Source: Desulfosudaceae bacterium
Lineage (GTDB): Bacteria; Desulfobacterota; Desulfobacteria; Desulfobacterales; Desulfosudaceae
DNA length: 64,000 bases
Direction of reading: 5' to 3'
NCBI GenBank assembly: GCA_963674745.2
Contig: CAXXDV010000003.1
Coordinates: 320,001-384,000, forward strand
Both the position numbers and the translations under genes were made by a program. Below, in pieces: positions 11,595-36,310 of this stretch. Numbering within the stretch: the stretch's first letter is position 1; each line of letters begins with the position of its first letter. The notes beneath the pieces were generated by a model. It was not told the DNA's origin. It saw only the letters and a list, made by a program, of their open reading frames with translations, and searched no databases.

Positions 11595-14500
11595 TCACGC
11601 CTCATCCATTCTCGTATCTATCTCGGCACCGGTTAGCAGGTTTTTGATCATATTTTTCAGGTAGTGCAGGTCTTCCAGTATGATGTAACCACAGGGGATC
11701 AGCAGAAGCGTGATGAATGTTGCGAACATCACACCGAATCCCAGACTGATGGCCATTGGAATCAGGAACCGGGCCTGCAGGCTTTTTTCCAGAAGCATGG
11801 GGGTGAGCCCGCCGAAAGTGGTTACCGAGGTCAGGATAATGGCCCGGAAGCGTAATTTACCACTTTCAATGACCGCTTGCTGAGCGTCAAAATCGTTTTC
11901 CAGGCGGAGATGGTTGACGCGGTCGATGAGTACCAGTGAATCATTGACCACCACTCCGGAAAGACCGACAATACCCAGCAGGCTCATGAAGCTGATGTTA
12001 TAACCCATCAACAGGTGCCCCAGAACAGCGCCGACAATGCCGAAAGGAATGGCTGCCATCACGATCAACGGCTGAGAAAAGGACTTAAAGGGCACGGCCA
12101 GCAGCGCATAGATACAGAACAGGGCGATAATGAATCCCCTGCGGATATCACCCATGACCTCTTTTTGTTCCTGTCCTTCCCCTTCAATCGTATAGCGTAA
12201 ACCGGGGTATCGGGTTTTTAAAAGAGGGAGAAAGTCACTTTCCAGGCTCTGCCTGATCTGGCTGGCGTTGGACATCTTTTCGTTGACATCGGCGGAGACT
12301 TTGATGACGCGCAGGCGCTGAGCGCGATCAATGGCGGCGTAACCTCGTTGCATGTTTACCTCGGCCACCGCGGAAAAAGGGACCTCATTGCCGTCGGCAG
12401 TGCGAATACGCATCTCTTCGGCATTGCCCAGGGATTTGCGTTCTTCGTCCGGATAGCGGACAAGTACTTTGATCTCGTCTTTGTCCCTCTGAAAACGCAT
12501 GGCTTCTGCGCCATAAAAAGCGTGGCGGACCTGTTGGGCCAGGTCGGCCAGTTTCAGACCGAGGTTGTCCGCGGCCGGCTTCAACTTGAGCTGCATTTCC
12601 ATCTTGCCGGGCAGAAAACTGTCGTTTATGTCAAAGACGCCGGAAAAGCCTTCCAACTCGGTTTTTAACTCTTCGGCCGCCTTCATCAGCACATTGTGAT
12701 CGTCCAGGGACAGATGCACTTCTATCGGATTCCCGGCACTGTGGATCTGGCTCTGGAAAACCAGTGATTCGGCATCCGGGACTTTGCCCACCCGTTGCCG
12801 CCATTCCCGAACCAGATCGGCAGCACTGATATTGCGCTTTTCGCCTTCCAGCAGTTGTATCCAGACCTGGGCCAGGTGGCCGCCGCTGTCTGCACTGCCG
12901 CGGTGTCCGAACTGGGCGCCTATTAAAGAAACCGTGTGCTCCAGCAACGGCGGGGCGTCATCCGGCCGGTCGGCATCTTTTTCCGCCAGCAGCTGCTGAG
13001 CGGTTTCTTCGATGTGTCTGACCACCGCCGTGGTACGTTTTTGGGGGAATCCGGAAGGCATGGTTATCTTGCATTCCAGGACGTCGCCCTCCACTTTTGG
13101 GAAAAAGGTGTATTTGATAATGCCGGCCGACCAGAGCCCGAAAGTGAGCAGGAGAATGGCTATACCGAAAGCCAGAGTGGCGTATCGCCAGCGGACACAA
13201 AATGTCACCAGGTTGTGATAAGGGACCTGTACGATCCAATTCAACCAGCGGGTCATTCGTTTGGACCGATGTCCGGCTTTCTTTATCGCCTTGCTGCGGG
13301 ACAGGTGGGCCGGCAGAATAAACAGTGATTCTACCAGCGAACCCAGCAAAACCACGATAACCACCAGCGGAATGTTGCGCATGAACATCCCCATGGAACC
13401 GCCGATATTCAGCAGCGGCCAGAAAGCCGCCATGGTGGTCAGCACGGCGAAAATTACCGGACGGCCCACTTCAAGAGTGCCGTTGATTGAAGCTGTTAAC
13501 TGTGTGCCGCCTTCTTCCTGATGACGAAAGACGTTTTCGCCCACGATAATGGCATCGTCCACCACGATACCCAGCACCATAATAAAAGCGAACAGGGAGA
13601 TCATATTCAAAGAAACATCGTAATGGGGCAGCATCATCAATCCAAAAGCGAAACTGATGGGGATACCCAGGGTCACCCAGAAGGCCAGTCGCAGATTTAA
13701 GAAAGCACCCAGCAGCAAACTGACCAGCAGCAACCCCAGGGCCATGTTTTTCATGAGCAGGTCAATGCGGCTTTTCAGGATGGTGGACATATCCCGGTAG
13801 TAATCAACAGAAACACCTTCAGGCAGGGTGGGTTGCAGTTGCCGGACAAAACGTTTAACCGTGGCGGCCACCGCCAGTGCGTTCTGATCGGCCACCCGGT
13901 AAACATTAATAATGGCCGCAGGTTTTCCCTGAAAACCGGCATACAGGTCAACATCGGCAAAACCTTCTGTAATCGAGGCAATTCGGTCAAGGGTGATCCG
14001 GCTGCCGTCAGGTCTGGTGATCACCGGGATATCCCGGAATTCATCGGCATAATAGCAGCGTCCCTTGGTACGGATGAGCACCTCGCCGGCTTCGGCATCG
14101 ACTTTCCCGGCCGGCAGATCCAGGCTGCTGCGGTTTACGGCCTGGGCCACGGCGCCCAGGGTCAGGCCATATTCCCGCAGTGTGGTTTCCGAGACATCGA
14201 TGTGAATCTCACTGGGACGCACCGCCGCCAGTTCGGCCACGGTAACACCCTTGAGGTTGGTTAAATCGTCCTGGGCGGTTTGTGCGATGTGTTTGATGGT
14301 GGCTTCGGGTACGTCTCCGTATATGGCGACACTGATGACCTGGGTCCGCCGTGTGATTTCCCGGACGACCGGTTCTTCGGCTTCCTCGGGCAGGGTGGTA
14401 ATCCGATCCACCTCGGATTTGACTTCATCCAGCAGTTTTTTGATGTCCCAGCCCCCCATGACCTCGATGGTCACCGTTCCGGAACCTTCTCTGGAAACCG

Positions 14501-14747
14501 AATCGATCCGCTTGATGCCATCCAGGCCGGCCACGTTTTCCTCGACGCGCCGGACAACGCCCTCTTCCACTTCTGAGGGGGAGGCACCCGGATAAGCGAC
14601 GGAGATGCTGATTTTATCCAGCTCACTTTCGGGAAAGATTTCCAGTTTGATGCCCAGGGCGGTGACGATGCCGGCAACCAGAAAAAACAGCATGAGCAGG
14701 TTGGCGGCGACATGATTTTCTGCAAACCAGGCGATTGTCGTCCTCAT
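11595..14747 (-). CDS. RND efflux permease (AcrB/AcrD/AcrF family)
   Basis: 1050 aa; GIVVDDAIIVGEN, RFRAIILTS.TT and PMAISLGFG motifs. Confidence 0.93.
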   Translation of the reverse strand: MRTTIAWFAENHVAANLLMLFFLVAGIVTALGIKLEIFPESELDKISISVAYPGASPSEVEEGVVRRVEENVAGLDGIKRIDSVSREGSGTVTIEVMGGWDIKKLLDEVKSEVDRITTLPEEAEEPVVREITRRTQVISVAIYGDVPEATIKHIAQTAQDDLTNLKGVTVAELAAVRPSEIHIDVSETTLREYGLTLGAVAQAVNRSSLDLPAGKVDAEAGEVLIRTKGRCYYADEFRDIPVITRPDGSRITLDRIASITEGFADVDLYAGFQGKPAAIINVYRVADQNALAVAATVKRFVRQLQPTLPEGVSVDYYRDMSTILKSRIDLLMKNMALGLLLVSLLLGAFLNLRLAFWVTLGIPISFAFGLMMLPHYDVSLNMISLFAFIMVLGIVVDDAIIVGENVFRHQEEGGTQLTASINGTLEVGRPVIFAVLTTMAAFWPLLNIGGSMGMFMRNIPLVVIVVLLGSLVESLFILPAHLSRSKAIKKAGHRSKRMTRWLNWIVQVPYHNLVTFCVRWRYATLAFGIAILLLTFGLWSAGIIKYTFFPKVEGDVLECKITMPSGFPQKRTTAVVRHIEETAQQLLAEKDADRPDDAPPLLEHTVSLIGAQFGHRGSADSGGHLAQVWIQLLEGEKRNISAADLVREWRQRVGKVPDAESLVFQSQIHSAGNPIEVHLSLDDHNVLMKAAEELKTELEGFSGVFDINDSFLPGKMEMQLKLKPAADNLGLKLADLAQQVRHAFYGAEAMRFQRDKDEIKVLVRYPDEERKSLGNAEEMRIRTADGNEVPFSAVAEVNMQRGYAAIDRAQRLRVIKVSADVNEKMSNASQIRQSLESDFLPLLKTRYPGLRYTIEGEGQEQKEVMGDIRRGFIIALFCIYALLAVPFKSFSQPLIVMAAIPFGIVGAVLGHLLMGYNISFMSLLGIVGLSGVVVNDSLVLIDRVNHLRLENDFDAQQAVIESGKLRFRAIILTSVTTFGGLTPMLLEKSLQARFLIPMAISLGFGVMFATFITLLLIPCGYIILEDLHYLKNMIKNLLTGAEIDTRMDEA

Positions 14748-15943
14748 GAGGTGCTCTCCCCGGTGGGCTGGGTGTCGGGTGTCGGGGGCAAATCGAGGAA
14801 CCTCACTTTCATCCCGTCGGTAACCGCCTTGAGCGGTGAAATTACCGCCAGGTCGCTGTCTTGTAACCCGTTACGGATGATGACCCCCCGTTCATCTTTT
14901 CGGGCAATCTCCACCGGGCGGAAATACAAACGACCCGTGTCCGGGTCAACCACCCAGACGGCGGACTCTCCGCGCAGGGCGGCCCTGGGTAAGACTGCGG
15001 CCTGTTCCAGGGGGCGACCGGCAATTTCAACTTCTACAAACTGGCCGACAGCCAACGGGGGCTGAGTGGCATAGGGGGCGGGCACACGTATGATGATATT
15101 GACCAGACGGGTCCTGGCATCTATGGCGCCTTCCGCGCGGAAGACGCGACCTGACCAGGTCATTTCCCTGCCCGCCACCCGGGCCCGGATTGTGGCTTTG
15201 GAACCGGTTCCCAGGCCACTGGTAAATCCGGGGACGGCCAGCCAGTTCAGGTCGTTGTTTTCCAGGGGGACCACGATTTCGGCGGTGTCAGTGGCATAAA
15301 GACCGGCCAGAACCTGTCCGGGCGTGACATACTGGCCCACATCCACCTGCTCGTCGGCTACCCGGCCATTGAAAGGCGCGGTGATCCGGGTCCGTGCCAG
15401 GTTCAGCCGGGCCTTTTCCAGATTGGCTCGCTGGGCGTCCAGGCCGGCCCGGGCGGCCATCAGTTGCGGTTCCCTGGCCACCAAAGGAGGCACGGGTATA
15501 TCCGGATTGATTCGCCGCCATTCCGCCTTGGCGGCAGCGGATTCCTGGAGGGCTGTTGCGTAATGACTTTCCGCCTCTTTAACACCGGCTTCAGCCAGAA
15601 TAACGGCAATTTCATAATCCCTGGGGTCAATGACCAGCAGTTCTTCATCTTTGATAAAACTGCCGCCGTTGACCAGGTTGTCCGACACCTGCACAACCTG
15701 GCCGCTGATCTGGGGCACAAGCCGGCTTTCGGTTGTTGCCTGGACCGTCCCAAGGCCGGTGATGGCCATTTTTACGGTGCCGATGTGTACCGGAACCGTA
15801 CGCACCAGCGGCAGGAGGTACTCCGACTGTTGATGCGCAGGACCTTTCCGGCATGCTTTAAACAGCATTAATCCCGTCACACCGATAATGATAAGGCCCA
15901 GTGTCACTGCCGTTTGAATAATGATCTTCCGTTTAGTTGTCAT
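14744..15943 (-). CDS. RND periplasmic adaptor (membrane fusion protein)
   Basis: N-terminal TM; ITAPFNGRV lipoyl-like motif; coiled hairpin; overlaps permease start. Confidence 0.9.
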   Translation of the reverse strand: MTTKRKIIIQTAVTLGLIIIGVTGLMLFKACRKGPAHQQSEYLLPLVRTVPVHIGTVKMAITGLGTVQATTESRLVPQISGQVVQVSDNLVNGGSFIKDEELLVIDPRDYEIAVILAEAGVKEAESHYATALQESAAAKAEWRRINPDIPVPPLVAREPQLMAARAGLDAQRANLEKARLNLARTRITAPFNGRVADEQVDVGQYVTPGQVLAGLYATDTAEIVVPLENNDLNWLAVPGFTSGLGTGSKATIRARVAGREMTWSGRVFRAEGAIDARTRLVNIIIRVPAPYATQPPLAVGQFVEVEIAGRPLEQAAVLPRAALRGESAVWVVDPDTGRLYFRPVEIARKDERGVIIRNGLQDSDLAVISPLKAVTDGMKVRFLDLPPTPDTQPTGESTS

Positions 15944-15949
15944 GCTGTT

Positions 15950-17416
15950 TTATCCGTTAACATGAGGCCTCTCTCCTGTTGCTTCCTGCTCCCAGTTTCC
16001 GCCCAGCGCCCGGTAGAGAGAGATGCGGTTGGTATATATCTGATACCGTGTTTTAGTCAGGCTGATTTCTGCCTGGAAAACGGCCTGCTGAGCGTCCAGA
16101 ACATTCATATAGTCAATTAAGCCCCGCTGGTATCGATCCAGCGCGGTCTCTTGCGTGGCGTTTGCTTCATTATAAAATATCTGCAACCGGTCCAGACGTT
16201 CGATCTGCTGCTCCCGTGTCAGCAGAGCGCCTTCTACCTCGGCAAATGCGGTCAACAGTGTTTTGGCGTAGTCGGCAAGTTGCTGCTGATAGCGGGCCCT
16301 GGCAGCTTTTTCAATGGCCTTGAGCTTTCCGGCGTCGAACAGGGGCTGGAAAATTCCGGCACCGATTTGCCAGAGTTCGCTTTCCGGTTTAAAAAGAAAG
16401 TCCAGTTCGTCACTGGCATAACCAAAACTGCCGGTCAGCGATATTCGCGGAAAACGGTTGGCCCGGGCCACGCCGATGCGGGCGCAGGCCGCTTCCAGCG
16501 CGGCCTCGGCCGCGCGGATGTCGGGCCGCCGTTGAAGCAGGTCCGAAGGAAGCCCGGCCGGGACCGGCGGCGGCAGGACGAACCGGCCGGGCCTCACCGG
16601 GTTTATTTCTTCAACCGAAGGATAGACGCCCTGCAGGACGGCCAGCGATTGGCGCGCTCGTCCCAGGGCTTCAACCAGGGATGGAATTTCCGCCTGGTAC
16701 TGGGCCAGGGCCTGTCTGGCCTGATGAACGTCCAGAATGGACGCCAGACCCAGTCGATATCTGTTCTCAACCAGATCAAGGCTTTCCTGAATCGTTTTTG
16801 TCAGTTGCCGGGTGATCTGTAGCTGCTCGGTCAATGATTGCATGGAAAAATAACGGCTGACAGCTTCGGCAATCAGGGATTGCGCAATCGTCCGACTGTT
16901 TTCTTCGGCGGCCAGCAGGTCGGCCCGGGCCGCCTGCGAAGCCCGCAAGAGACGTCCCCATAGATCGACTTCAAACGACGCCGGAAAAGCCAGAGAGAAA
17001 GAATCGCTTTTGATAACGATGTTGTCCTCCGTAAGGGGGTTGATCATGGGCTGTTTTTGCCGCCCGGCCTGGGCGTCCAGTCCCAGTGCCGGGAAACGGG
17101 CGGCCCGGGCCTGGACCTTCAGGGCATGGGCTTCCAGGACACTGGCTGCGGCTTTCCGGATATCGGGATTGCCTGTGATGACATTGGCTATTACCTGGTT
17201 CAACCGGGGGTCTTCAAATTCTTCCCACCAGTTATCATCTGAATCCCGGGAAGTTTCTTTTGGCCGGATGCCGTCCACCACGGCCGATAGATACTTATCA
17301 GGCAGGTTCAAACCGGTATCCGGTCTTTCATAATCCGGTCCCAGGCGCAGGCAGCCGGGTATGGCCAGGCCGACGAGTATCGCTACCACTGTCAAAAGAC
17401 TTGACGCGCGATTCAT
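15950..17416 (-). CDS. Outer membrane efflux lipoprotein (NodT/OprM family)
   Basis: Lipobox IPGC; WWEEF.DP.L, FEVDLWG, GLPSDLLQRRPDI, LYRALGG. Confidence 0.92.
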   Translation of the reverse strand: MNRASSLLTVVAILVGLAIPGCLRLGPDYERPDTGLNLPDKYLSAVVDGIRPKETSRDSDDNWWEEFEDPRLNQVIANVITGNPDIRKAAASVLEAHALKVQARAARFPALGLDAQAGRQKQPMINPLTEDNIVIKSDSFSLAFPASFEVDLWGRLLRASQAARADLLAAEENSRTIAQSLIAEAVSRYFSMQSLTEQLQITRQLTKTIQESLDLVENRYRLGLASILDVHQARQALAQYQAEIPSLVEALGRARQSLAVLQGVYPSVEEINPVRPGRFVLPPPVPAGLPSDLLQRRPDIRAAEAALEAACARIGVARANRFPRISLTGSFGYASDELDFLFKPESELWQIGAGIFQPLFDAGKLKAIEKAARARYQQQLADYAKTLLTAFAEVEGALLTREQQIERLDRLQIFYNEANATQETALDRYQRGLIDYMNVLDAQQAVFQAEISLTKTRYQIYTNRISLYRALGGNWEQEATGERPHVNG

Positions 17417-17622
17417 GAATGTTGCGTCTCCGTTTTTAATTAGGGCCGAAGGAAACAATGCCGGGTTTTTCAGCCGGATTTACACACCCGTGTTCTATAT
17501 TTACAACGGGCTTTATGCCCGTGCAAAAAACCGCCGTGTATTTCAAACATGTATAAGAAACGATTGAAATATACGGCGGTATTAGTAAGTACCAGGTCCC
17601 CGGGAAAGTCCGTCTGTTCAGG

Positions 17623-19155
17623 TCAGACAGCCCGGGCCAGCGGATGCGCCTGTTCGATTCTGGCGAATTCCATATCAAGTTTTTTAAGGCGGTTTTTTGT
17701 TTCACTGTCCCTGGTCGTCATTTTTGTACCGGTGTTATCCGCTCCGATATCCTGAGCAGGCGTATTATATCCTTCCCATAGCGGGTGCAGGTTATGGAGC
17801 AGCCCTTCTTTGTAAAGATTTGCCAATGTATTTAAAAAAACCAGCAGGGCTTCATTCCCTTTCCGATGGTCCGTGGAAAGGGCCAGGTGAGGCTTGTCTT
17901 CCAGTATCTGACCGACCAGCCTGGTCAGGATGTCAGAGGGGCCGATCTCGACAAATATCCGGATTCCGTCCGCATACATTTGTTCAACCTGGGAAAAAAA
18001 GCGGACGGGTTTTTCGCAATGCGTTTTCAGCAGTTTGCGAAACAGGTCCGGATCATTGTTGACTTTTCGGCCGAACAGAAAAGAATATACATCACAATCC
18101 GCCGGCCGGAATGTCAACCCTTTCAAATATCGGAAAAATTTTTCCGCGACGTCTACGGCAAGCGGACAATGCGGTGCGGCTGAAATGGGGATGAGCTGGT
18201 TGCCGATATCTTCATCGTCAAGAATTTTATGGGCCCGGCGGACGGATTCCTTGACCCCGGAAAGAACAGTCTGCCGGAGCGTGTTGTAGTTCGCAATCCA
18301 GACATCGTCGATTCCGTTGGCATCCAGAATCTCCTGGATCTTTTCCGCAGACGCCATCACAATCAGGATACATCCCCGGGTCGCCAGGGGGCAGGCCACA
18401 CCCAGTTCACCGCGGTAGCGGATGGCGTCAAGCATTTTTTCACTGTCGAGAATGCCGGCGCACCGGAAAGCACTGATATCTCCGAAGCTATGGGCCGCCA
18501 CGGCGTCGGGATGAAGGCCCATTCCTGTGAGAAGGGCATAGATCGATTCTCCGACGACGGCAATGCCGGGATTTGTCCAGTCCGCGCCCGAAAGTCGCAG
18601 AAACGCTTCCCGGGCCGATGTTTCATCCATAATGTTTTCCGGAAAGACCACTTCCTGAACGGATTTGTCGCCAAAACGCGTGCTTCCGAGCCCGTTCCAG
18701 ATCCGGCGTGCCGTCGGGAATACGTCGGCCATCGGCCCTCCCATGCCCAGGTACTGGGCGCCCTGCCCGGGGAAGAGAAAAGCCGTACGTCCGAGAGGCG
18801 CGCCCCGGCCGTAAAACAGGCCGGCCGCTGGAAACGAAAACGGGGTCTTTGGATGCTCCTTGATCATTTTTCGTATCTGGATCAGTTTTTTTTCCAACTC
18901 CAGTTCAGTATAGGCGGTTAAGGCCATGCGCATTCCGGCGTTCATACCATTGTGGCCAAAATCCTGCTGAGATTGCCGGGAGACACGTTTAAGATATCCG
19001 ACCTGCTTTCGCTCTGCATCCAAGGCACTGATCCAGTGGTCGATTTGATCGATAATATCGTCGGAATGATCGCCGCAGCCAACTACCAGTTCAGGGATTT
19101 GATATCCCCTGTGTGCCGGTTTATTTCCGACATGTTGCCTGGTATCTGCATCCAT
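17623..19155 (-). CDS. Stand-alone acyltransferase (PfaB/FabD-like) with N-terminal KS-AT linker-like region
   Basis: FLFPGQGAQY, AHSFG nucleophile, IANYN, PVRF, FVEIGP. Confidence 0.85.
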   Translation of the reverse strand: MDADTRQHVGNKPAHRGYQIPELVVGCGDHSDDIIDQIDHWISALDAERKQVGYLKRVSRQSQQDFGHNGMNAGMRMALTAYTELELEKKLIQIRKMIKEHPKTPFSFPAAGLFYGRGAPLGRTAFLFPGQGAQYLGMGGPMADVFPTARRIWNGLGSTRFGDKSVQEVVFPENIMDETSAREAFLRLSGADWTNPGIAVVGESIYALLTGMGLHPDAVAAHSFGDISAFRCAGILDSEKMLDAIRYRGELGVACPLATRGCILIVMASAEKIQEILDANGIDDVWIANYNTLRQTVLSGVKESVRRAHKILDDEDIGNQLIPISAAPHCPLAVDVAEKFFRYLKGLTFRPADCDVYSFLFGRKVNNDPDLFRKLLKTHCEKPVRFFSQVEQMYADGIRIFVEIGPSDILTRLVGQILEDKPHLALSTDHRKGNEALLVFLNTLANLYKEGLLHNLHPLWEGYNTPAQDIGADNTGTKMTTRDSETKNRLKKLDMEFARIEQAHPLARAV

Positions 19156-19172
19156 GCTTTTTTCTCTCCATG

Positions 19173-19200
19173 GGAAAGGCCCCGGCCTTTCGGCCGGGGC
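19173..19200 (-). terminator. GC-rich GAAA-loop hairpin (weak terminator or mRNA stabiliser)
   Basis: GCCCCGGCC-GAAA-GGCCGGGGC followed by CTTT on minus strand. Confidence 0.45.
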
Positions 19201-19237
19201 GTGTTGTTATAAATTCCGGGAATTTCCCGGTTCATCA

Positions 19238-21149: not shown

Positions 21150-21785
21150 TCAGATGCGGCTGCTGATCGATTTCCGTTGCCGGTATAAATTCGAATCCAC
21201 CATCGCCGCCATTTTTTCCACATCCAGCCCGTTGCCCAAAAATGAACTGACTTCTTGGGCTTTGTCCAGCGGGGCGCTCAATATGTCACTGTAATGGACA
21301 TAGATCACGTGAAAGTGGGGCTGCCCCTCGAGCCATCGGTAAGTTGCCGCCAGATATTTTTCATATTTGGCGGCCATGACTTCGTCCGGCACACCCGCTT
21401 CGGTAGTGGTGCCGCGGCGCGCCAGCATTTTTTGTTGGGATGCCAGGATCTCTTCCATATTCCGCTGCATGAAAATTACGTAGTAGAAGATGTCTTTGGG
21501 CAGCATGGGCAGCAGGGCGGATATGGCTTTGATGACCTTCCCTTTTTCCGCCATCAGCCAGGTATCGTCCGCCTCCAATTGTTTGATTTTTTCCAGCTCA
21601 TAATACCCGTTGGGATTGTCTTCATTGGCCTGGCGGATATTGTCGGTGACAACAGGCATACCACCGGCCGCGAGCATGCGCATCATCATGCTGGTGCCGG
21701 AGCGCGGCAAGCCGGAAACCAGGGTGATGGCATCGGAGACCGGCGGTATTTCATAGGGGTCAGACAATTGCGTATTGCTTTTCAA
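21150..21785 (-). CDS. Sulfotransferase family protein
   Basis: 5'-PSB loop SGLPRSGTSMMM; DNPNGYYE; FMQR..EILASQ 3'-phosphate-binding motif. Confidence 0.85.
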   Translation of the reverse strand: MKSNTQLSDPYEIPPVSDAITLVSGLPRSGTSMMMRMLAAGGMPVVTDNIRQANEDNPNGYYELEKIKQLEADDTWLMAEKGKVIKAISALLPMLPKDIFYYVIFMQRNMEEILASQQKMLARRGTTTEAGVPDEVMAAKYEKYLAATYRWLEGQPHFHVIYVHYSDILSAPLDKAQEVSSFLGNGLDVEKMAAMVDSNLYRQRKSISSRI

Positions 21786-22644: not shown

Positions 22645-22666
22645 GAATTAACTCCTGTGACAACAT

Positions 22667-24576: not shown

Positions 24577-24578
24577 TT

Positions 24579-27500: not shown

Positions 27501-29114
27501 TTTTTCCTGTATCTTCGTCAAAACCTGCCGGCAGGCCGTTACCAGGCCGGCCCGGGAAACATCGGCAAAAAGGAACAGGGCGACATCCCAGTCCGGACCG
27601 CGTGATGTCATCTTCCGGCAGGCAGCAGCCACCGGTTCGGTGTTTCCGGTTGTCGTCGATTTCGGGGCTTTTTTGGTCGGTTCCCGGTATTCTTCAAGCA
27701 CCACGTGGGCGTTGACGCCGCCGAAGCCAAAGGCGTTGACGCCCGCCCGGCGGGGTATGTACGGGGAGATACGGATCCATGGACGGGTTTCGGTGTTGAT
27801 ATAAAAAGGCGTATTTTCCAGATTGAATTTCGGGTTGGGTGTATCGCAATTCAATGTCGGCGGCAGAACTTTATGATGAAGCGCCAGAACCGTTTTGATC
27901 AGGCTGGCGATACCCGCCGCCGGCATGGCATGGCCGATCATGGACTTGACCGCTCCCAGCGCGCAGTGACGGGCGGCACCGTCGGCCTTTTTCCCGAACA
28001 CCGTGGCCAGGGACTGGATTTCCGCGGCATCGCCAACACTGGTGGCCGTGCCGTGGGCCTCGATCAGCCCGATCGTTCTGGGGGGGATCCCTGATGCCTG
28101 GTAAGCGCGTTCCAGAGCCAGTATCTCTCCCTCAACCCGCGGTGCGGCCACGCTGATGCCCCGGCCGTCGCTGGAACTGCCCACCCCGCGAATCACGGCA
28201 AAAATGCGGTTGCCGTCCCTTTTCGCGTCGGCCGTCCGTTTCAGAACGACGATACCGACGCCTTCGCCCGGCAGCATGCCGTCGGCTTCTGTGTCAAAAG
28301 GGCGGATTCGCCCCTGTTTGGACATGGCGCCCAGGGTACAGAAAACATTCAGAAAGGGGATGTTGTTGAAAATATGGACGCCGCCCGCCAGTGCCAGGTC
28401 GCTGCGTCCGGACAGAATCGCGGAAACAGCCGCGTCCACGGCAAACAAAGATGAGGCGCAGGCCGCGTCGATGATGTAGTTCGGCCCCATCAGGCCCAGC
28501 CGGTTGGCCACCCGGCCGGCGGTAATGTTGGGCATGACCGATGGTGCCGTTTCCGCTTCAAACGGTTTTAACGAGATCAGCAGGTTGTCCTTGAGTTCGT
28601 CGCCGGCACCGGGCGGCAGGTCCGGATGCAGTTGTTCCACCAGGCGCACGGTCTGGTCGACGATGAAGGTGCGCTGCAACAGGTTGAAGGCACCGGTACT
28701 CAAATAACTGCCTCTTCCCAGAATAAATGCCGTATTCTCATGGTCCGGGCCACCCGGTGCGATGCCGGCATGGCGCAGGGCCTGGTCCGCGGTTTTTAAT
28801 ACCAGAAATTGATCGGGTTCGCCGCCATTGACCGCCTTGGGCATGATACCGAACTCGGCCGCATTGAAACGAAAGGGGGAGTCCAGGTATCCGCCCCGTT
28901 TGGCATATACTTTGTCCCGGTCGTTAAAATCCGGATCGTAGAAACGCTCGGTGTCCCATCGGTCCGTTGGGGCATCGGTTACGGCATCGACCTTATGAAT
29001 GATATTGTGCCAGAACGTTTCCAGGTCGGGTGCCCGGGGAAAACGGCAGGCCATACCGATCACAGCCACGGTATCGTCAATATTTTCGGGTTTTATCTGA
29101 TAATCTGAATTCAT
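24579..29114 (-). CDS. Type I PKS: KS-AT-DH plus partial PPTase-like C-terminus
   Basis: KS DAACASS/HGTAT/GHAM; AT GHSAG; DH LLDHPFG...LLDACAQ; terminal RIAAKDAVR...VSVSHT. Confidence 0.9.
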   Translation of the reverse strand: MNSDYQIKPENIDDTVAVIGMACRFPRAPDLETFWHNIIHKVDAVTDAPTDRWDTERFYDPDFNDRDKVYAKRGGYLDSPFRFNAAEFGIMPKAVNGGEPDQFLVLKTADQALRHAGIAPGGPDHENTAFILGRGSYLSTGAFNLLQRTFIVDQTVRLVEQLHPDLPPGAGDELKDNLLISLKPFEAETAPSVMPNITAGRVANRLGLMGPNYIIDAACASSLFAVDAAVSAILSGRSDLALAGGVHIFNNIPFLNVFCTLGAMSKQGRIRPFDTEADGMLPGEGVGIVVLKRTADAKRDGNRIFAVIRGVGSSSDGRGISVAAPRVEGEILALERAYQASGIPPRTIGLIEAHGTATSVGDAAEIQSLATVFGKKADGAARHCALGAVKSMIGHAMPAAGIASLIKTVLALHHKVLPPTLNCDTPNPKFNLENTPFYINTETRPWIRISPYIPRRAGVNAFGFGGVNAHVVLEEYREPTKKAPKSTTTGNTEPVAAACRKMTSRGPDWDVALFLFADVSRAGLVTACRQVLTKIQEKEGFDWRALSRTLLRNFTPEAQRLAVIAESADDLARKLEYAVTRLKAPNCRKIKDIKGIYYFEKPLAKTGKVAFMFPGEGAAYTNMMMDLCLHFPPVRDAFDEINMTVADRNKKSRYLPSQFIFPATLLSREEYDSLEAEFWKVDSGLQAILSSSLAMNDLLYRFGVAPDMIVGHSAGEYSAWIASGILDKQDLYRHQERIAAIYEDRGETPDTSMVAVSASVKKVKPLLDDIAGDIHISNDNCPHQVVVVGETGAMDRLRSSLKKSRLLFTDLPSREVHHTPMATHQASPLEAAFSALQIKSARVPVYSPVTAALYPRERNDILELMVGYWLHQLRFRETVEAMFQDGARIFIEVGPGNNLCGFVDDILRGKSVMTVPANTSRRSGTAQLCHLLGMLAAQHVDLALDLLTVDDRSVVPEQSESVPEKSTALVDLDLGLPELQWDETTLATWREKITPTAFCDIPANRAEKSRPADRTKKSRTRAMEKYMDTMARFLDLQKEMTMGLTGHDRTNARNDQSGSKAPWPMVDRMTVLEAGQRLHTERHIDLNHDVFLLDHPFGGDISQVDNRLFPLIITPLTLNMEVMIEAAAFLFSGKTPIGIRDVKANRWIEVDEEKGVHLAAEARLIAKDEAVVRLFNREAGRTPSTEARVLYAADYPETMPPEPVPAELTTPQAAERAGQMYVQKLMTHGRRFQIVNALTRTDQNEIIALLQAPGNHDLFSENNRQAFLINPLLLDACAQLTGYWAQEALSDRFITFPAGVKEIVLFTRPPRPGQWLWCRMRIRDISHQFVRSDLVIFNESGRAWARVTGWTHRRFDLPGELYRFYRFPLQHTISSTVSDETSVARQIKCTVPCYDQLDKTIWQKAIGYLYLNADERPLFRERLRQNDLIGRWLSERIAAKDAVRVFLRENRGRAVAPADITLYDDRRGNLIPQSRLVPSLEQQVAVSVSHTDDFVSARILPIKQLRKQEVG

Positions 29115-29123
29115 TATAGCCTT

Positions 29124-32100
29124 TTATTTTACGGCCAGGCGGTTCAAGGATTCACTGCCGATAATTTCCAGGCCTTCCATCATGCCGGTTAGCGAGCCTT
29201 CAGGTGTGAGAAAAAACACATCCGCCGACTTGATCCCGTTGTTATCCGGGGTCCGGACCCGCACTTCGCAACGCAGATCGTCCCCGTTGCGGGGGGCGTC
29301 AAAACGGAAGAATTTTTTCAGACGGGTCGGCAGGGGCGTGGCATTCATCCGGTTCCGCATCCACAAAGAAACCAGCTGAAGACCGCTGTCAATGATCAGC
29401 GGATCGATCAGCCAGTCATAATCATCGGAGGCAGCGGTCCTGGGCAGGTAAGCCTTTGGACGGGAGGCTTTCAGCCGGCCGATGATGCCGTCTTTTCCAA
29501 TGGTTTCCACATGCTGAATGCCGTGCCACAAGGGGCCGTGAAAGAGCTGCTTTTCATAAAGTTCAGAGACGGACAGGGTGAACGGCTCCGGGTCGGAAAT
29601 ATCCAGGGAAATATGCCGTCCAGGGGCCGGTTTTTCCCGAAGCAGCTCAACGTTAGCCCGGTAATAGATGCGTCGTTTATCGCGGCTGTCCCGGATCTGA
29701 ATATCCAGCGTGATCTGCCGGTTTGTGCTTATTACCGGATTCACTACGATGTTAATGGTTTCAAATCCGTTTTTCAGCACAACGCCCTTGAGCACATGAA
29801 AATTACTAAAAGTGCTGAGGAAATAGTCCGGATACCGGAAGGCCACGGCTTCGGCCATTATTTCCATGGCCATGGCCATGGGAAGTACCGGATAGCCGTC
29901 CAGTTTGTGGTCCTGGAGATAGTAATCATGATCGGTGTCCAGGCGGTGAACCAGTTCCACGTTTCCGTTTCCGCTGGGATAAAAATTGGAATTAGAAGAG
30001 AGCAGGGGCAGAGCTATCGTTCGGCTGTCGGCTGTCAGGGCTCTTTTTCGGCTGTCCCATCCGCCGTAAATGACTTCCGTGGCGGTTGCCGGTCCGTACA
30101 GAAGTTCGTTGATGAAGTGATTCACGCCCTCGTCCCGGGGAATCAGCGAAATGCCGGCGGCACTGAATTTTTCCTTGAGTTCCGCCGACACCATGCCCCG
30201 GCTTTCCCAGGGGCCCCAGATGAATGAGACGATCCGTCCCGGCCAGACCCGGTTCAGGTAAAGGGCGGTCTTGTTGTAGACTTCGTTGGCCGCGCCGTAG
30301 TCAGACTGACCGGCATTGCCGAATCTTCCGGCCACCGAAGAAAAAAGGGCCAGAAAACGAAGGCTGCCGGCCTGCAGGGCCTGGCTGAGAATAAAGAGGC
30401 TGTCCGCCTTGGTATCGAAGACCCGGTCAAATGATGTGATATCCTTGTCTTTGATCGGTTTGTCTTCAATCCGGCCGGCGCCGTGAATAACGCCGTCGAT
30501 TCCGCCATACGTTTCATTGATTGTATCGATCAAGCGGGAAAAACCTTCCGCGTCGGTGACGTCTCTTTGCAGATAATGGGCCTCAGATCCGAGTTCGCCT
30601 AACCGGTCCAGCGTTTCCCGGATTTCGCGTTGGGCGACCAGACGGTGATAGGCATTTTCAAGATCGGCCGGTCGGACTTTTTCACTTTGTGATTTCAGTT
30701 GTTCCGCCAGTATCGCTTTCAGTTGTCTTTCATCCTCGATGCCGATGGTTTCCGGATTCTCTTCCGCCAGCGGTGTTTTACCCACCAGCAGCAGCGTCGG
30801 CTGAAACCGTCTGGCCAGTTCCAGGGCTATGGCGGACGTAATCCCCCGGGCGCCGCCGGTGACCAGCAGGCGCGAACCGGGGCCAATCGTTATCTTCGGC
30901 GGATGGTTTGTTATCAACGGTTCTTCCAGAATGGCCAGAACCAGGCGGCAACCGTCCTGATATCCGACTTCGATATCCGCGGAGGGGGTCAGCAGTTCGT
31001 TGGTAATCTGGGTGGCAATGGTTTGTGGCGTGTCTTTGGGATCGTTATCCACAACCCGTATATTGAGGCCCGGCATTTCTTCGGCCAGGGCCTTTAAAAA
31101 ACCGCTGACGCCGCCGCCGACCGGCGAAAAATCCGGTTCGCCGGGTTTTTCGATTTCGACGACGCTGGCAAAAGTACCGCCCATGGCCGTAGCTGCAACA
31201 ATCCCGGAGACACCCGCCGGATTCGCCGAGGTCAGGTCCGTGGCCAGCAGTTTGGTGAGATAGAAGAGGCTTTTGATCATTGTCGCCGCTTCTTTTTTCC
31301 AGGTGGCCAGATCCGGGAAGGGGAAAGCACTGCCCGCTGCCAGAGGTGCCAGATGGAGCAGGGCGGTAACTGGGCCGTGGGTTTCCCGGATGTCATCCAC
31401 CGTTTCGGCCAGCCGGTCAAAATTTGTGAAATCCGCGCAATATACGGCCGTGTTGAAGTTTTCCGCGGTCAGATCCGTTGCCGGCAGATCATGCTCGAGA
31501 ATGATGACATTATAGCCCAGAGGTTCAAGCCCGGCCACAACCGCCCGGGCCAGCGGATCCCCCGGTATCATGGTCACCAGCACGGTGCCCTCGGCGGGAA
31601 ATGATTCCGGACTGACAATCAGGCCGCGTTTTTTGGCATAGAGGGTATATCGCCTGACCGGTGGTATATGGAGCGGGTCCGGCCGCTCTTCCGACGGTAA
31701 CGTGCCCGGCACCGAGGGGATTATCTGCTGTTCCATCCAGTCAGTCAAATCACCGAGACACGCGGCGTCCCCGGGAAACGGCCGGTCGGCTGCCGTCTTT
31801 GCGCCGGGTATGTCGGATTTAAACACTTCTGTCCATTTTGCGATAACCGTTTCTGTCAGCGCCTTGTCCATATTCAGATCGTTTTTCAGCCTAAGGTCCG
31901 GTTCCAGTATTTCCGCAGGATAGCCGGTATGCGATTCAACGATTTGATATAATACGTTCCTGACTGTCTTCTGGTCAGCGGTCAGGGAGGCCGTCGACGG
32001 CGTGACGGTCTCCGCTTTCCCAACAGCGGACGCTTTGTCGTCGATATTTTCTGTTTTTAACTGGTCCCCGATGACGGATTCCAGGCCGATTACAATATCG

Positions 32101-35100
32101 TTCAGCGTGACGCTTCTCCCCAGGCGTTCCCGGCCGGCATCGGTCATCTGGATATGGTGTTCCGCCAGTTTCTCCTCAAAGTGGGCCAACACCTCCATCC
32201 GTTTGATGGAATCAATACCCAGTTCCGCGTCAATCTCCTGATCCAGTTCCAGCATATCGGCGGGATAGCCGGTCAGGTCGCCGACAATGGAGATCAGGGT
32301 GGCTTTGATGTCAAACGGGGCGACGGTTGTGACGGCCGGGGCTGATGCGGCCACCTTACCGGCCGGTGGCCCCTGGGCTTCCGATACCAGGGCCTGCAGG
32401 CCGTCCAGCAGGTCCGCCAGCGTATGACTGGCCACCAGGCTTTCCATTCTGCTTTCCTGAAGCGTGACGCCATGCTGCTCCAGGGCGGTCTCCAACTCCA
32501 TCATGGCCTGCATCCGTTTGATGGAATCGATGCCCAGGTCGGCGTCAATTTCCTGGTCCAGTTCCAGCATTTCCACGGGGTAGCCGGTGCAGTCGCTGAC
32601 GATTTCCAGCAGAATGGTTTTCACATCAAGGGATGGGATGCGTTCCTCTTTTTCCGGAACGGTTGTTTTCGTTGCCGAAAGGTCCGGGGAAGCGACCGGT
32701 GGAACACTGAAGTCCGGTGGCCGGTCGGAAATGGGATGGTTTATATCCGGTTGAACCATTTCCGGCATGATTCCGTTTACTGAAACAGGGCCGATGGCGG
32801 TCTCGTATCCCCGGCATTCCCCGAGCCCGGCGCGGTCTGACGATCCGCCGTTCAGCCAGGCTGTCATAACCGCTTTTTGTGTGTCCAGAAACTGACTCAT
32901 TAAATCCTGAAATCTGGCAATCATCATATCATCCGTGGTCGCCGGATTCCTGTTTGTCTCTATGGGCACGGACTGGCCCTGTTGATCGGTTGGTGAAGGC
33001 ATGGTCTGGCTGTTCCACTCCCATTCAAAGGTATTAATGTTATTAAAATCCGTCGGGTTTTCGGTGTTCCCGGTTTCTGTCTCTTGCGCTTCATCGACAA
33101 AACCGACCGGTCGCGGAACAACGCGTTCCGGGGGCGGTTGGTCGGCGGGGCGAACCGTCCCGCTGCCGATGATAAAGCGGGCTTCAGGAATATCGGATTT
33201 TTCGTCAGAAAGCGTATCCTGCCGGTCAAATCGCCGGCAATCACGCCCCGCGAACAGCCGCTCCAGTTGCAACTCAACGCCGGCCACAAATATGACCGCC
33301 AGGGCATGCTGCAGTTCTGTTACGTCCGCCCTGCCTTTTTTGTTTGTGGCTACAGCCTGGTGTGGTTTGTCTTTAAGAATGGCTTTGATCAAATTGGTCA
33401 GAACGCTGTTGGCGCCGACCTCTATGAAAATCCGAGCGCCGGCTTCATACATGGCTGAAATTTCCGCTGAGAAGCGAACCGGGCTGACCAGTTGTCCGGC
33501 CATCAGTTTTTTGATTTCCGGCCCGTTTTCGGGGAAAGGGGCGGCAATGGTATTTGAAAAAACCGGTCTTTGAGGGACGCCAAAATCAATATTTTCCAGG
33601 AAATTTTCCAGTTTTGACTTCGCGGCGTCAACGAGGGGGCTATGAAAGGCGCATGCCACGGGAATTGTTTTGCATGGTATTTTCTCTTGTTCGAGTTTTT
33701 CCATAGCCGCTTTGACCCCGGCCCGGCTGCCGCTGATGACGGTCTGTGACGGTGCATTCAGGTTGGCGATCCAGACCCGATCCAGGTCTTTGAGCAGTGG
33801 GATGACTTCCGACTCAGATGCTTTGACCGCGGCCATGGTGCCGGGCTCTGACCCGGACGATTCGAGGATAAAACGCCCCCGGGCTTCGGAAATCCGGGCC
33901 AGGTCTTTTTCTGCCAGAACCCCTGCCGCAAACAGGGCGGGATATTCGCCGTAACTGTGACCGGCCGTCATATCGGGAACGACGCCCAGAGTCGTCAGCA
34001 ACTCATGCATAGCCGTGTCCACCGCGCCCATGGCAGCCTGGGTAACGTCGGCCCGGGTCAAGGCGGATTCATCGGCTTTTTTTTCTTTGTCGGTAAAATA
34101 AATCGGTGGATTAATAATTCGGCTCAGACCGGCGGGAAAAGCTTTTGCAAGATGCCGGTCGAAACGTTCCAGCGTTTCCCGGACCAGGGGAAAGGACAGG
34201 GCCAGATCGTTGAGCATACCGGGATACTGGGATCCCTGACCGGGATAAACAAAGGCGATTTTGCCTGTTTCCGAAACCGGCCTGTAGCTGAAATAGACAC
34301 CCGGGATGTGTCGGTCCCGGGTGTCTTGTTCGGCCAACAACATCAGGGCTGTCTTGATCTTGTTTTTCAGATCGTCTGTGGAGGAAGCTACGACGGCCAG
34401 GCGGACATTGTTCTCCGCCGATGGGGTCACGGCCATGGTGTAGGCCAGGTCTTTCAGGGGTGTTTCCGGATATCGGGCCAGCTGATTTTCCAGGTATTGG
34501 ATACGGCCGGTAACCGCCCCGGTTGTTTTCCCCTGAAAAACAAAAAGTTCCGATTCCCATTCCGGCTTGAAAGCCGTTTTTCCGGCGGATCCTGTCGGCC
34601 CGGAATATTCCTCCAGTACCGCGTGGAAGTTTGTTCCGCCGAAGCCGAAGGCACTGACGCCGGCCCGCCGGGGCCGGCCGGCGGTGGCAAACCAGGGCCG
34701 GGCCCGGGTGTTCAGGTATAAGGGATTGTCTTCACCGGTCAGATCGGGGACCGGTTTTTCCAGGCCTGCCGTCGGCGGGATCACCTTGTGGTGCAGGGCC
34801 AGAACGGTTTTGACCAGTGAAGCGATACCGGCCGCGCATTTGGTATGGCCGATCATTGATTTGATCGACCCTACGGCACAGCTGCGGGGGGGCATATCCG
34901 TCCCCGAGAAAAAGGCGTGCAGGGCGGCGGCTTCGGATTTGTCACCTGCGACTGTACTGGTGCCATGGGCTTCGATCAAAGAGATGGTTGCCGGTTCGAT
35001 AGCGGCCCTTTCATAGGCCCGGGCCAGGGCCGCGATCTGTCCCTCCGGCTTGGGAACGGTCAACCCCTTGCCGCGCCCGTCACTGGAAGCCCCGACGGAC

Positions 35101-35981
35101 TTAATAACGGCGTAAATCGGGTCGCCATCTCTTTCGGCGTCGGCCAGGCGCTTTAAGATAACCGTGGCCACCCCCTCTCCCAGAACAATACCATCGGCGT
35201 CCTGATCAAAGGGGATGCTTTTGCCGGTCGCGGACAGGGCGCCGACTTTGGAAAAACAGGTGTAGGCATAGGGGCTCATCAGCGTGTCCGTACCACCCAC
35301 GATGACCATATCGCTCTCCCCGGTCGCAAGCTCCAGGATACCCGTTCGCAGGGCGGCCAGGGCCGAGGCACAGGCCGCGTCAATGGTACAATTGGTGCCG
35401 CCGAGATTGAACCGGTCGGCGATCCGGCCGGCGGCAATATTGGTGATGATGCCGGTAAAGGCGTCTTCGCGCCATTCAGGGACCGCCGTACCGAGGCCGG
35501 ATAGAATATGGTCGGCACTTTCCCCGAAAAACCGGGGGACTTGCGATCGGAAACTGTATTGCTGACCCAGATCACCTTCGCCGGCGCCTGCGCCGACGAA
35601 CACGGATGTCCGGCTCCGGTTAAATTCGCGGTCCATGTAACCGGCGTCGTCCAGGGCCAGCCGGGTGCTTTCCAGGACCAGCAGCTGTGCTGTTTCGATG
35701 AATTTTAAAGCCTTGGGCGGGATGCCGAATTGAAGGGGGTTAAAAGGAATATCCGGCAGAAATGCGCCCCACTTGGATACAATACGGTCTTTCCCAGTGG
35801 GGGCGGTGTCGAAATAATACCGACTGTCCCATCTTTGAGGCGGGATCTCCGTAATCGATACAGTCCCTTTGACAATATTCTGCCAATAGGACTTTAAATC
35901 CGGTGCATCCGGAAAAAATCCGGCCATTCCGATAACAGCTATGTCAGTTACGGCACTGACATTTTGATCCGCGTGTGTCAT
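29124..35981 (-). CDS. PfaA/HglE-like iterative type I PKS: KS-AT-ACP-ACP-(degenerate ACP)-KR-DH
   Basis: KS DAACASA/HGTST/GHTK; AT GHSYG..AFHS; two LGIDSIK ACPs; KR TGGARGIT..YGAAN; DH HKLDGYPVLP..DSGLQ. Confidence 0.93.
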   Translation of the reverse strand: MTHADQNVSAVTDIAVIGMAGFFPDAPDLKSYWQNIVKGTVSITEIPPQRWDSRYYFDTAPTGKDRIVSKWGAFLPDIPFNPLQFGIPPKALKFIETAQLLVLESTRLALDDAGYMDREFNRSRTSVFVGAGAGEGDLGQQYSFRSQVPRFFGESADHILSGLGTAVPEWREDAFTGIITNIAAGRIADRFNLGGTNCTIDAACASALAALRTGILELATGESDMVIVGGTDTLMSPYAYTCFSKVGALSATGKSIPFDQDADGIVLGEGVATVILKRLADAERDGDPIYAVIKSVGASSDGRGKGLTVPKPEGQIAALARAYERAAIEPATISLIEAHGTSTVAGDKSEAAALHAFFSGTDMPPRSCAVGSIKSMIGHTKCAAGIASLVKTVLALHHKVIPPTAGLEKPVPDLTGEDNPLYLNTRARPWFATAGRPRRAGVSAFGFGGTNFHAVLEEYSGPTGSAGKTAFKPEWESELFVFQGKTTGAVTGRIQYLENQLARYPETPLKDLAYTMAVTPSAENNVRLAVVASSTDDLKNKIKTALMLLAEQDTRDRHIPGVYFSYRPVSETGKIAFVYPGQGSQYPGMLNDLALSFPLVRETLERFDRHLAKAFPAGLSRIINPPIYFTDKEKKADESALTRADVTQAAMGAVDTAMHELLTTLGVVPDMTAGHSYGEYPALFAAGVLAEKDLARISEARGRFILESSGSEPGTMAAVKASESEVIPLLKDLDRVWIANLNAPSQTVISGSRAGVKAAMEKLEQEKIPCKTIPVACAFHSPLVDAAKSKLENFLENIDFGVPQRPVFSNTIAAPFPENGPEIKKLMAGQLVSPVRFSAEISAMYEAGARIFIEVGANSVLTNLIKAILKDKPHQAVATNKKGRADVTELQHALAVIFVAGVELQLERLFAGRDCRRFDRQDTLSDEKSDIPEARFIIGSGTVRPADQPPPERVVPRPVGFVDEAQETETGNTENPTDFNNINTFEWEWNSQTMPSPTDQQGQSVPIETNRNPATTDDMMIARFQDLMSQFLDTQKAVMTAWLNGGSSDRAGLGECRGYETAIGPVSVNGIMPEMVQPDINHPISDRPPDFSVPPVASPDLSATKTTVPEKEERIPSLDVKTILLEIVSDCTGYPVEMLELDQEIDADLGIDSIKRMQAMMELETALEQHGVTLQESRMESLVASHTLADLLDGLQALVSEAQGPPAGKVAASAPAVTTVAPFDIKATLISIVGDLTGYPADMLELDQEIDAELGIDSIKRMEVLAHFEEKLAEHHIQMTDAGRERLGRSVTLNDIVIGLESVIGDQLKTENIDDKASAVGKAETVTPSTASLTADQKTVRNVLYQIVESHTGYPAEILEPDLRLKNDLNMDKALTETVIAKWTEVFKSDIPGAKTAADRPFPGDAACLGDLTDWMEQQIIPSVPGTLPSEERPDPLHIPPVRRYTLYAKKRGLIVSPESFPAEGTVLVTMIPGDPLARAVVAGLEPLGYNVIILEHDLPATDLTAENFNTAVYCADFTNFDRLAETVDDIRETHGPVTALLHLAPLAAGSAFPFPDLATWKKEAATMIKSLFYLTKLLATDLTSANPAGVSGIVAATAMGGTFASVVEIEKPGEPDFSPVGGGVSGFLKALAEEMPGLNIRVVDNDPKDTPQTIATQITNELLTPSADIEVGYQDGCRLVLAILEEPLITNHPPKITIGPGSRLLVTGGARGITSAIALELARRFQPTLLLVGKTPLAEENPETIGIEDERQLKAILAEQLKSQSEKVRPADLENAYHRLVAQREIRETLDRLGELGSEAHYLQRDVTDAEGFSRLIDTINETYGGIDGVIHGAGRIEDKPIKDKDITSFDRVFDTKADSLFILSQALQAGSLRFLALFSSVAGRFGNAGQSDYGAANEVYNKTALYLNRVWPGRIVSFIWGPWESRGMVSAELKEKFSAAGISLIPRDEGVNHFINELLYGPATATEVIYGGWDSRKRALTADSRTIALPLLSSNSNFYPSGNGNVELVHRLDTDHDYYLQDHKLDGYPVLPMAMAMEIMAEAVAFRYPDYFLSTFSNFHVLKGVVLKNGFETINIVVNPVISTNRQITLDIQIRDSRDKRRIYYRANVELLREKPAPGRHISLDISDPEPFTLSVSELYEKQLFHGPLWHGIQHVETIGKDGIIGRLKASRPKAYLPRTAASDDYDWLIDPLIIDSGLQLVSLWMRNRMNATPLPTRLKKFFRFDAPRNGDDLRCEVRVRTPDNNGIKSADVFFLTPEGSLTGMMEGLEIIGSESLNRLAVK

Positions 35982-36194: not shown

Positions 36195-36243
36195 AATAAA
36201 ACAAAAAGCCGGGCTGCCCGTTTTTAATCAGGGCAACCCGGCT
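36195..36243 (-). terminator. Intrinsic terminator overlapping the 3' end of the riboswitch aptamer
   Basis: AGCCGGGTTGCCC / GGGCAGCCCGGCT stem followed by TTTTGTTTTATTT on minus strand. Confidence 0.8.
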
Positions 36244-36310
36244 GTCTTTTGTTTAAAGATCCTGGGCTTTCCGTCATCCGGTCATCCGGATGTTGGCTTT
36301 TTCCTTAATT
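36225..36310 (-). ncRNA. c-di-GMP-I (GEMM-I)-like riboswitch upstream of the PKS operon
   Basis: Minus strand AAAGCCAA-CATCCGG-ATGA-CCGGATG-ACGG-AAAGCCCAGGATCT...AGACAGCCGGGTTGCC matches the GEMM-I P2/P3 layout. Confidence 0.8.

Follow-up and report, generated by a model that had tools for sequence, protein, structure and literature searches.

We analysed a stretch of 64,000 nucleotides from a Desulfosudaceae genome (the window; G000:C3:320001-384000, G000 being the source genome) and assign the polyketide synthase (PKS) cluster on its minus strand to a large, AlkP-containing sub-branch of the Type M, N and O synthases. The reading that we favour, with modest confidence, is a predicted operon of eight genes, activated by cyclic di-GMP (c-di-GMP), that would make a modified, amphiphilic long-chain lipid: an ArsA-like synthase would build the chain, an AlkP/hydrolase module would process it and a sulfotransferase would render it anionic. 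Domain content, catalytic residues, gene order, the overlap of a riboswitch aptamer with a terminator and a further terminator after the last gene are seen in the sequence, and from them we infer the product and the AlkP chemistry. A first-pass annotation of this DNA had listed eleven co-oriented genes. All eleven open reading frames are present on the minus strand, with the families then proposed (Pfam/NCBIfam), and eight of them make up the predicted operon:

29124..35981, minus strand: PKS1, 2285 aa, with ketosynthase (KS), acyltransferase (AT), acyl carrier protein (ACP), ketoreductase (KR) and dehydratase (DH) domains in the order KS-AT-ACP-ACP-(degenerate ACP-like repeat)-KR-DH (Pfam/NCBIfam)
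24579..29114, minus strand: PKS2, 1511 aa, KS-AT-DH and a truncated phosphopantetheinyl transferase (PPTase)
24277..24576, minus strand: free ACP (PF00550)
22667..24277, minus strand: AlkP-superfamily (NPP-like) enzyme (PF01663)
21760..22644, minus strand: alpha/beta hydrolase (PF00561), a thioesterase or acyltransferase candidate
21150..21785, minus strand: sulfotransferase dependent on 3'-phosphoadenosine 5'-phosphosulfate (PAPS), PF13469/PF00685 above cut-off, PRSGTS motif
19238..20998, minus strand: secreted beta-propeller protein, 586 aa from the ATG at 20998, no Pfam or NCBIfam match
17623..19155, minus strand: stand-alone AT (PF00698), a linker plus AT with AHSFG and APHC motifs

The genes from PKS1 to the sulfotransferase are tightly packed, with intergenic gaps of 9, 2, -1, 22 and -26 nt, and the propeller gene is flanked by gaps of about 150 and 82 nt. 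Behind the stand-alone AT gene, 206 nt separate it from the likely ATG of the next gene, which encodes an outer membrane factor (OMF), and this gap holds a candidate end of the transcript:

17525..17579, minus strand: predicted intrinsic terminator in the AT-OMF gap, hairpin of -22.6 kcal/mol plus U6

Six hairpin-plus-U sites lie on the minus strand between 11401 and 36400, and only this one and the riboswitch terminator described below fall outside coding sequence; the z-scores of the hairpins come from hand-picked windows and overstate their significance. We thus predict an operon that runs from PKS1 to the AT and ends at this terminator, and the single eleven-gene operon proposed earlier is not borne out. 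Just before the AT start, at 19156-19205 on the minus strand, is a GC hairpin with a GAAA loop (-29.3 kcal/mol) that has no U-tract and is possibly an mRNA-stability element.

The leader of the operon was examined in relation to the c-di-GMP-I family:

36229..36307, minus strand: c-di-GMP-I (GEMM-I) aptamer, Rfam RF01051, 48.9 bits against a gathering score of 35, E 1.6e-6
36198..36242, minus strand: leader intrinsic terminator, a 12-13-bp stem of -27.9 kcal/mol followed by a U-tract
36391..36422, minus strand: candidate promoter region, with TTGACA at 36422 and an A/T-rich block common with the closest relative, G401

The match above the gathering score bears out the GEMM-I-like leader of the earlier annotation. 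The aptamer resembles RF01051 in this score and in overlapping a terminator, and differs from it in P2, where the loop is not of the GNRA type and the C-G pair at the base is swapped. It has a G at the G20-equivalent position (36297). We assume the rule by which G20 denotes c-di-GMP and A20 cyclic GMP-AMP, and it is thus predicted to bind c-di-GMP. The 3' strand of the aptamer doubles as the 5' arm of the terminator, so ligand binding should permit read-through, which supports the proposed switching in the form of a predicted ON switch. In G401, an orthologous aptamer (41.7 bits) lies 5' of PKS1, and its leader terminator is kept (-26.6 kcal/mol), with sequence changes that preserve pairing. 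No aptamer was found 5' of the clusters in G402-G405 and G067 or of a second cluster in G000, and seven further clusters gave none at the gathering threshold; across the whole G000 genome there are five c-di-GMP-I matches over the cut-off. Among the 25 titles listed by a literature search, none gave an example of a c-di-GMP-I riboswitch that controls a PKS. The TTGACA site was not listed by a consensus promoter scan, which also missed long-loop terminators, and the promoter is a lead only. The related genomes G402 and G403 each carry four tandem c-di-GMP-I aptamers (G402:C30:524-873, L135, L139, L143 and L147; G403:C13:13043-13390, L131, L136, L140 and L146).

The AT of PKS1 is of the malonyl type (AFHS), its catalytic motifs are intact, and the protein starts with the KS, lacks an enoylreductase (ER) and ends in the DH. 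Most family members carry an ER on PKS1, which in the relatives G067, G242 and G083 is an NMO-type ER at the N terminus; it is also missing in G401, G402, G405 and the second G000 cluster. PKS2 has a KS with the Cys-His-His triad, an AT with the atypical motif EVHHTP (YHTP or a VHTP variant in most relatives) and no internal ACP. Its C terminus corresponds to only the N-terminal half of a PPTase, which neither matches ACPS nor contains a GxDxE/WxAKEA motif; ACPS matches are present on the PKS2 tails of G067 and the second G000 cluster. The GxDxE motif occurs in 40 of 59 related PKS2s. The DH motifs are intact in both PKS1 and PKS2.

This domain content points to the [ER-]KS-AT-ACPn-KR / KS-AT-PPTase / free-ACP layout of Types M/N/O, with ArsA and ArsD as kin; as PKS1 has no ER, we count the locus as a variant of these types and not as a plain member. 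Table S1 of Shulse & Allen 2011 (PMC3098273) gives Types M, N and O as ER-KS-MAT-ACPn-KR / KS-AT-PPTase / ACP with uncharacterised products, in Frankia, Streptomyces avermitilis, Renibacterium, Chitinophaga, Dinoroseobacter, Gloeobacter and Parvularcula. The three-gene core has thus been catalogued since 2011 without a product, and the description of the locus as a new system was overstated and should be dropped. A 2026 paper still terms the Renibacterium example uncharacterised (PMC13291983). The likeness consists in two large genes plus a free ACP, with KS-MAT-ACP(1-3)-KR in the first gene, and in a Streptomyces plasmid cluster of the same layout with a related ACP (31%), hydrolase (26%) and glycosyltransferase; it refers to the layout and to plasmid-cluster relatives. 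In contrast to Types M/N/O, the window cluster has no ER, no internal PKS2 ACP and a truncated PPTase, and adds the AlkP enzyme, sulfotransferase, propeller, stand-alone AT and c-di-GMP riboswitch. A plasmid search with PKS2 gave no record covering 80% of the query.

We compared the KS domains in a careful tree of 22 rows and a quick tree of 60 rows, the references being plasmid clusters of M/N/O layout instead of the 2011 strains and, for cyanobacteria, a PfaA-like gene on a Nostoc plasmid instead of HglE. In the 22-row tree, six PfaA/Nostoc KSs form a clade (99/99) with the window PKS1 outside, and the KS of the window PKS2 joins a Streptomyces Type-M-like PKS2 (100/100); the 60-row tree agrees. 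PKS1 passes the NCBIfam PfaA model (TIGR02813, 1194.8 bits against a cut-off of 1010.1), which accounts for the Pfa/Hgl architecture assigned earlier. The cluster also has the KS-AT-ACPn-KR order of PfaA-E / HglE (Types A-L), and its stand-alone AT is 46% identical to one beside a PfaA-type gene in G269. Despite this, domain content and the KS tree led us to reject Pfa/Hgl membership, as the cluster has no KS-CLF, FabA-type DH pair, PfaD or thioester reductase and instead a single Cys-His-His KS and a PS-DH in PKS2.

The synthases are akin to those of arsABCD (Type P) of Azotobacter vinelandii and Beijerinckia indica, with an ArsA-like PKS1 and an ArsD-like DH-PPTase tail on PKS2. Identity to Beijerinckia ArsA is 41% over 1980 aa for the PKS1 of G067 and 35% over 1461 aligned residues for the window PKS1; the C-terminal part of the window PKS2 shares 27% identity with Beijerinckia ArsD across 451 aa, with PKS2 tails at 27-31% overall. 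The window cluster differs in having no type III PKS (ArsB/C), which the Beijerinckia reference has between arsA and arsD, in the fusion of a second KS-AT to the ArsD part, in its other tailoring genes and in the missing ER. ArsA is reported to supply C23-C25 acyl chains (PMC4824345).

The missing ER bears on a rival reading by analogy, in which KR and DH would produce a conjugated polyene that is then capped, sulfated and exported as a pigment or antibiotic. Enediyne PKSE-type synthases make conjugated polyenes. Such a product would fit the ER-less PKS1 of the window, G401, G402, G405 and the second G000 cluster and the intact DH motifs of both synthases, but the ER on most family members, an NMO/PfaD-type ER elsewhere in the genome and the kinship to ArsA/ArsD argue against it, the trees having been built without PKSE sequences; we regard a polyene as unlikely. 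A purely functional analogy can also be drawn to the mycobacterial sulfolipid-1 pathway (Pks2, Stf0, MmpL8), which likewise combines an iterative PKS, a sulfotransferase and an acyltransferase near an RND transporter. The window differs in scoring below the Pks2 cut-off (451 vs 2400), and Pfam/NCBIfam scans of the window returned no PapA/Chp-type acyltransferase.

We next consider which genes travel with the synthases. A scan of genome contigs with a 6-row AlkP alignment confirmed at least 506 of 603 candidate stretches, and the best 80 loci, the record titles of which span 10 phyla, were analysed; the nearest relatives carry the labels Desulfobacterales, Thermodesulfobacteriota or Deltaproteobacteria. 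Of the 66 loci with at least 5 kb of upstream sequence, 63 have a PKS gene; an ACP gene lies directly 5' of AlkP in 66 of 79 and a hydrolase gene directly 3' in 67 of 75. These counts define PKS1-PKS2-ACP-AlkP-hydrolase as the conserved unit and, within loci selected by AlkP, support the earlier view that a PKS operon for a secondary lipid comes with conserved tailoring genes. Downstream content is more variable (61 loci with at least 8 kb): a propeller-motif protein in 53, SDR in 32, glycosyltransferase in 23, B12 radical SAM in 7, AT in 3, and OMF and membrane fusion protein (MFP) in 1 each. Of the conserved linkage that the annotation called for, the association of the tailoring core (ACP-AlkP-hydrolase) with the PKS holds and that of the RND export genes does not. 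Two plasmid clusters of the same PKS layout have no AlkP, so the enzyme marks a sub-branch. The cluster is patchily distributed: the AlkP profile matches 6 of the 301 genomes in the class and gave no match in G484, a 99%-complete genome of the same genus. Rubrivivax gelatinosus (L106) is a carrier of the family that is in culture.

The subtype of the window (no ER, short PKS2, sulfotransferase, full-length propeller and AT) is common to L044-L047, where the reduced layout is kept at 46-86% identity. This bears on the proposal that the cluster is a decaying Type M/N/O remnant without a product: the missing ER and internal ACP and the truncated PPTase would fit decay, but all reading frames are open, the catalytic motifs are intact, the reduced layout is shared at that identity and the riboswitch is conserved in G401, which makes a remnant highly improbable.

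G000 contains a second, different family cluster (G000:C1, about 2,533,270-2,561,430; L031, L032, L124). It encodes a PKS1 without ER or DH, a PKS2 with a full PPTase, ACP, AlkP, hydrolase and esterase, together with two CoA-transferase-like proteins, a propeller-methyltransferase fusion, a radical SAM protein, an HlyD/OMF exporter and a sulfotransferase. RxxxR...[DN]xSxxG motifs, which we take to be PilZ-like, stand at the end of its hydrolase and of a TPR protein and are another possible link to c-di-GMP.

The residues of the conserved module were inspected in length-filtered rows drawn from the 80 loci. In the AlkP enzyme, all 74 rows have T53, D215, D218, H222, D277, H278 and H436, and 73 of them also have D14. 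Its N-terminal Asp/Thr and SDHG motifs align to Xanthomonas NPP, and its nearest solved relatives are NPPs (nucleotide pyrophosphatase/phosphodiesterases) and phosphonoacetate hydrolase. The features of NPP-type membership, a Thr nucleophile and six metal ligands, are present; D218, H222 and H436 are presumed to be metal ligands by analogy. A model built from the 6-row alignment is mediocre (pLDDT 66) and confirmed only the NPP fold. The invariant residues and the NPP relatives together predict a catalytically complete phosphodiester-processing enzyme, and as no signal peptide is apparent, it is probably cytoplasmic. The free ACP forms a distinct family with DWEY..E and ES.D motifs and has Ser44 in 71 of 72 aligned rows, and the hydrolase (Ser95/His260) has the H-S-x-G motif and His260 in 69 of 69. 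A plasmid search with AlkP returned only haloarchaeal proteins, at 25-28%.

In two Bryobacteraceae loci (L065:2547-13971 and L074:3490-11946), a PPTase-ACP fusion, AlkP and hydrolase stand behind a FabF-like KS, with no type I PKS, and adjoin sat/cysC and a second AlkP paralogue. This arrangement suggests that ACP, AlkP and hydrolase are a portable module. A broader proposal is that they represent an undescribed portable chain-release chemistry, which about ten phyla would employ behind both type I PKSs and FabF-type systems in the synthesis of unrecognised anionic lipids, with AlkP acting on acyl-phosphopantetheinyl-ACP or adding a phospho- or sulfo-head group and with the two G000 clusters tied to c-di-GMP by riboswitch and PilZ-like domains; in this full form we think it rather doubtful. 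A sulfate chemistry for AlkP drawn from sat/cysC linkage was rejected, since these genes are near the cluster in full in only 2 of 80 loci, with a partial match in 2 more. Our search of the open-access literature, with subscription papers and MIBiG outside its range, turned up no publication that describes an AlkP-containing cluster or its product, in keeping with the earlier statement that no characterised product is known for this gene set.

There is a 26-nt overlap between the hydrolase and sulfotransferase genes, which stand side by side in each of the 4 closest loci. This pairing would fit olefin formation by analogy to the curacin/Ols sulfotransferase-thioesterase (ST-TE) pair, where decarboxylative elimination after sulfation leaves a terminal alkene; here, a beta-hydroxyacyl-ACP would be sulfated and the final alkene would carry no sulfate. 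The hydrolase is, however, kept in clusters that have no sulfotransferase (65 of 80 loci), and the AlkP enzyme and propeller would go unaccounted for, so we judge an alkene product improbable.

The propeller protein has an N-terminal hydrophobic stretch and is modelled by AlphaFold at a pLDDT of 91.9. CylK came first in Foldseek, at a TMq of only 0.37-0.39 and a root mean square deviation of 9-11; in a wide fold search generic propellers tie at Z 25-26 and CylK is absent from the 50 rows. A CylK-like function is for these reasons no more than a lead. Searching the ESM Atlas gave only unnamed clusters, and 849 relatives were found among 8000 scored sequences. Many of these (P0033-P0118) carry the extra domains PF13620, PF17210, PF18962, PF00404 and PF00395, presumably of the Ig-like, type IX sorting, dockerin and S-layer homology (SLH) kinds, and on this assumption members of the family seem to sit at the cell surface outside the context of PKS clusters as well. 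The stand-alone AT occurs only in the 4 closest of the 80 loci.

Potential trans helpers in G000 are a stand-alone PPTase, a sat/APS-kinase gene and an NMO-family ER 5' of a PfaA-type gene, the PfaD label of which derives from family and position. The genome also has a conventional Pfa-type set at C3:590954-599518 and C3:1325859-1333000 (L125, L126), in which about 730 kb separate the PfaBC-like gene from the ER and PfaA-like genes.

For our favoured lipid operon we propose the following mechanism. At low c-di-GMP, the leader terminator would halt transcription, and bound ligand would sequester its 5' arm to allow read-through; this is the step that we consider most secure. PKS1 would then elongate an acyl chain from malonyl-CoA as an ArsA-like iterative synthase and, without an ER of its own, would either borrow a trans ER, which we favour slightly, or leave the chain unsaturated or hydroxylated. 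It is fairly likely that PKS2, with its intact KS and non-malonyl-type AT, performs the last extension or hands the chain over to the free ACP, a trans PPTase standing in. The ACP-AlkP-hydrolase module would serve for off-loading and head-group attachment, with the hydrolase releasing or transesterifying the chain. The bimetal AlkP enzyme would act on a phosphodiester via a Thr53 intermediate, and transfer of a phospho-head group from a nucleotide-activated donor is the most probable use, though proposed tentatively; cleavage of acyl-phosphopantetheine off the ACP and the handling of PAP/PAPS-type nucleotides or sulfate are two less probable options of equal standing. Sulfation of a hydroxyl by the sulfotransferase, yielding an anionic lipid, is likely, and the secreted propeller may perhaps bind or mature the product outside the cytoplasm. 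We thus read the product as a modified, probably sulfated lipid of long chain that would be made in high-c-di-GMP states. Its use may be at the surface or in biofilms, the c-di-GMP control being the sole ground for this suggestion. The predicted ON switch offers a handle on when the product is made and how to induce it, and once identified, the lipid would reveal the function of a cluster family that ranges from cyanobacteria to Desulfobacterota, as well as the biochemical role of a common, so far unassigned AlkP-superfamily enzyme.

Downstream of the terminator, the three remaining genes encode an efflux trio (Pfam/NCBIfam), with gaps of 6 and -4 nt:

15950..17416, minus strand: OMF
14744..15943, minus strand: MFP
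11595..14747, minus strand: RND (resistance-nodulation-division) transporter

The annotation had made these genes part of one eleven-gene operon with dedicated export of the PKS product. Co-orientation and adjacency, a second independent adjacency in G028, the other exporters (HlyD/OMF or MFS) of other family members and the absence of both cluster and this RND from G484 speak for such a role. Against it stand the AT-OMF terminator, the lack of an RND gene in all 80 related loci, including the 61 with at least 8 kb downstream, and the spread of close RND homologues, present in 94 of 401 genomes of the phylum. The closest orthologues are unlinked, one (75%) behind a TetR gene in G401 and one (78%) in G516, a genome in which we did not find the AlkP of the cluster. 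Among 13 other cluster-bearing genomes (G028, G045, G067, G083, G181, G242, G401-G405, G545 and G575; mostly fragmented drafts, the G401 cluster being split over contigs), the trio adjoins the cluster only in G028. The trio is thus probably an adjacent, separate transcription unit; a dedicated exporter is improbable and that claim should be dropped. In our reading it would be a generic pump that may aid export.

Several observations weigh against the interpretation given here. The 80 loci were picked by AlkP similarity and are related, not independent. In the 22-row KS tree, the branch uniting the window PKS1 with other family PKS1s is unstarred (82/91), as are the deeper PKS1 branches, and the tree gives ArsA no resolved position. 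Loss of the ER and of half the PPTase could mean a product unlike the Ars fatty acyl chain. A sulfotransferase of any kind occurs in 15 of 80 loci, full-length propeller orthologues in 5 of 80 (the remaining relatives have no more than a repeated blade motif in common with it) and the c-di-GMP-I aptamer in 2 of 15 clusters checked, which makes these features local additions. Finally, the close trio (51-64%) beside the family cluster of G028 argues for some functional tie, and the trio may have a helper role in export.

The region is flanked on the plus strand (10044-11579 and 39359-40726) by two membrane proteins, one of them with TPRs, whose PMT_2 mannosyltransferase-like matches are weak. 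Three cobalamin riboswitches on the minus strand (55-256, 3787-3974 and 9681-9870) belong to an ordinary B12-uptake region with a TonB receptor, an ABC transporter and a binding-protein/CbiZ fusion. The segment 47929-51004 is low in GC (0.355 at 48001-50000) and contains open reading frames of 465 and 324 aa without a Pfam match.

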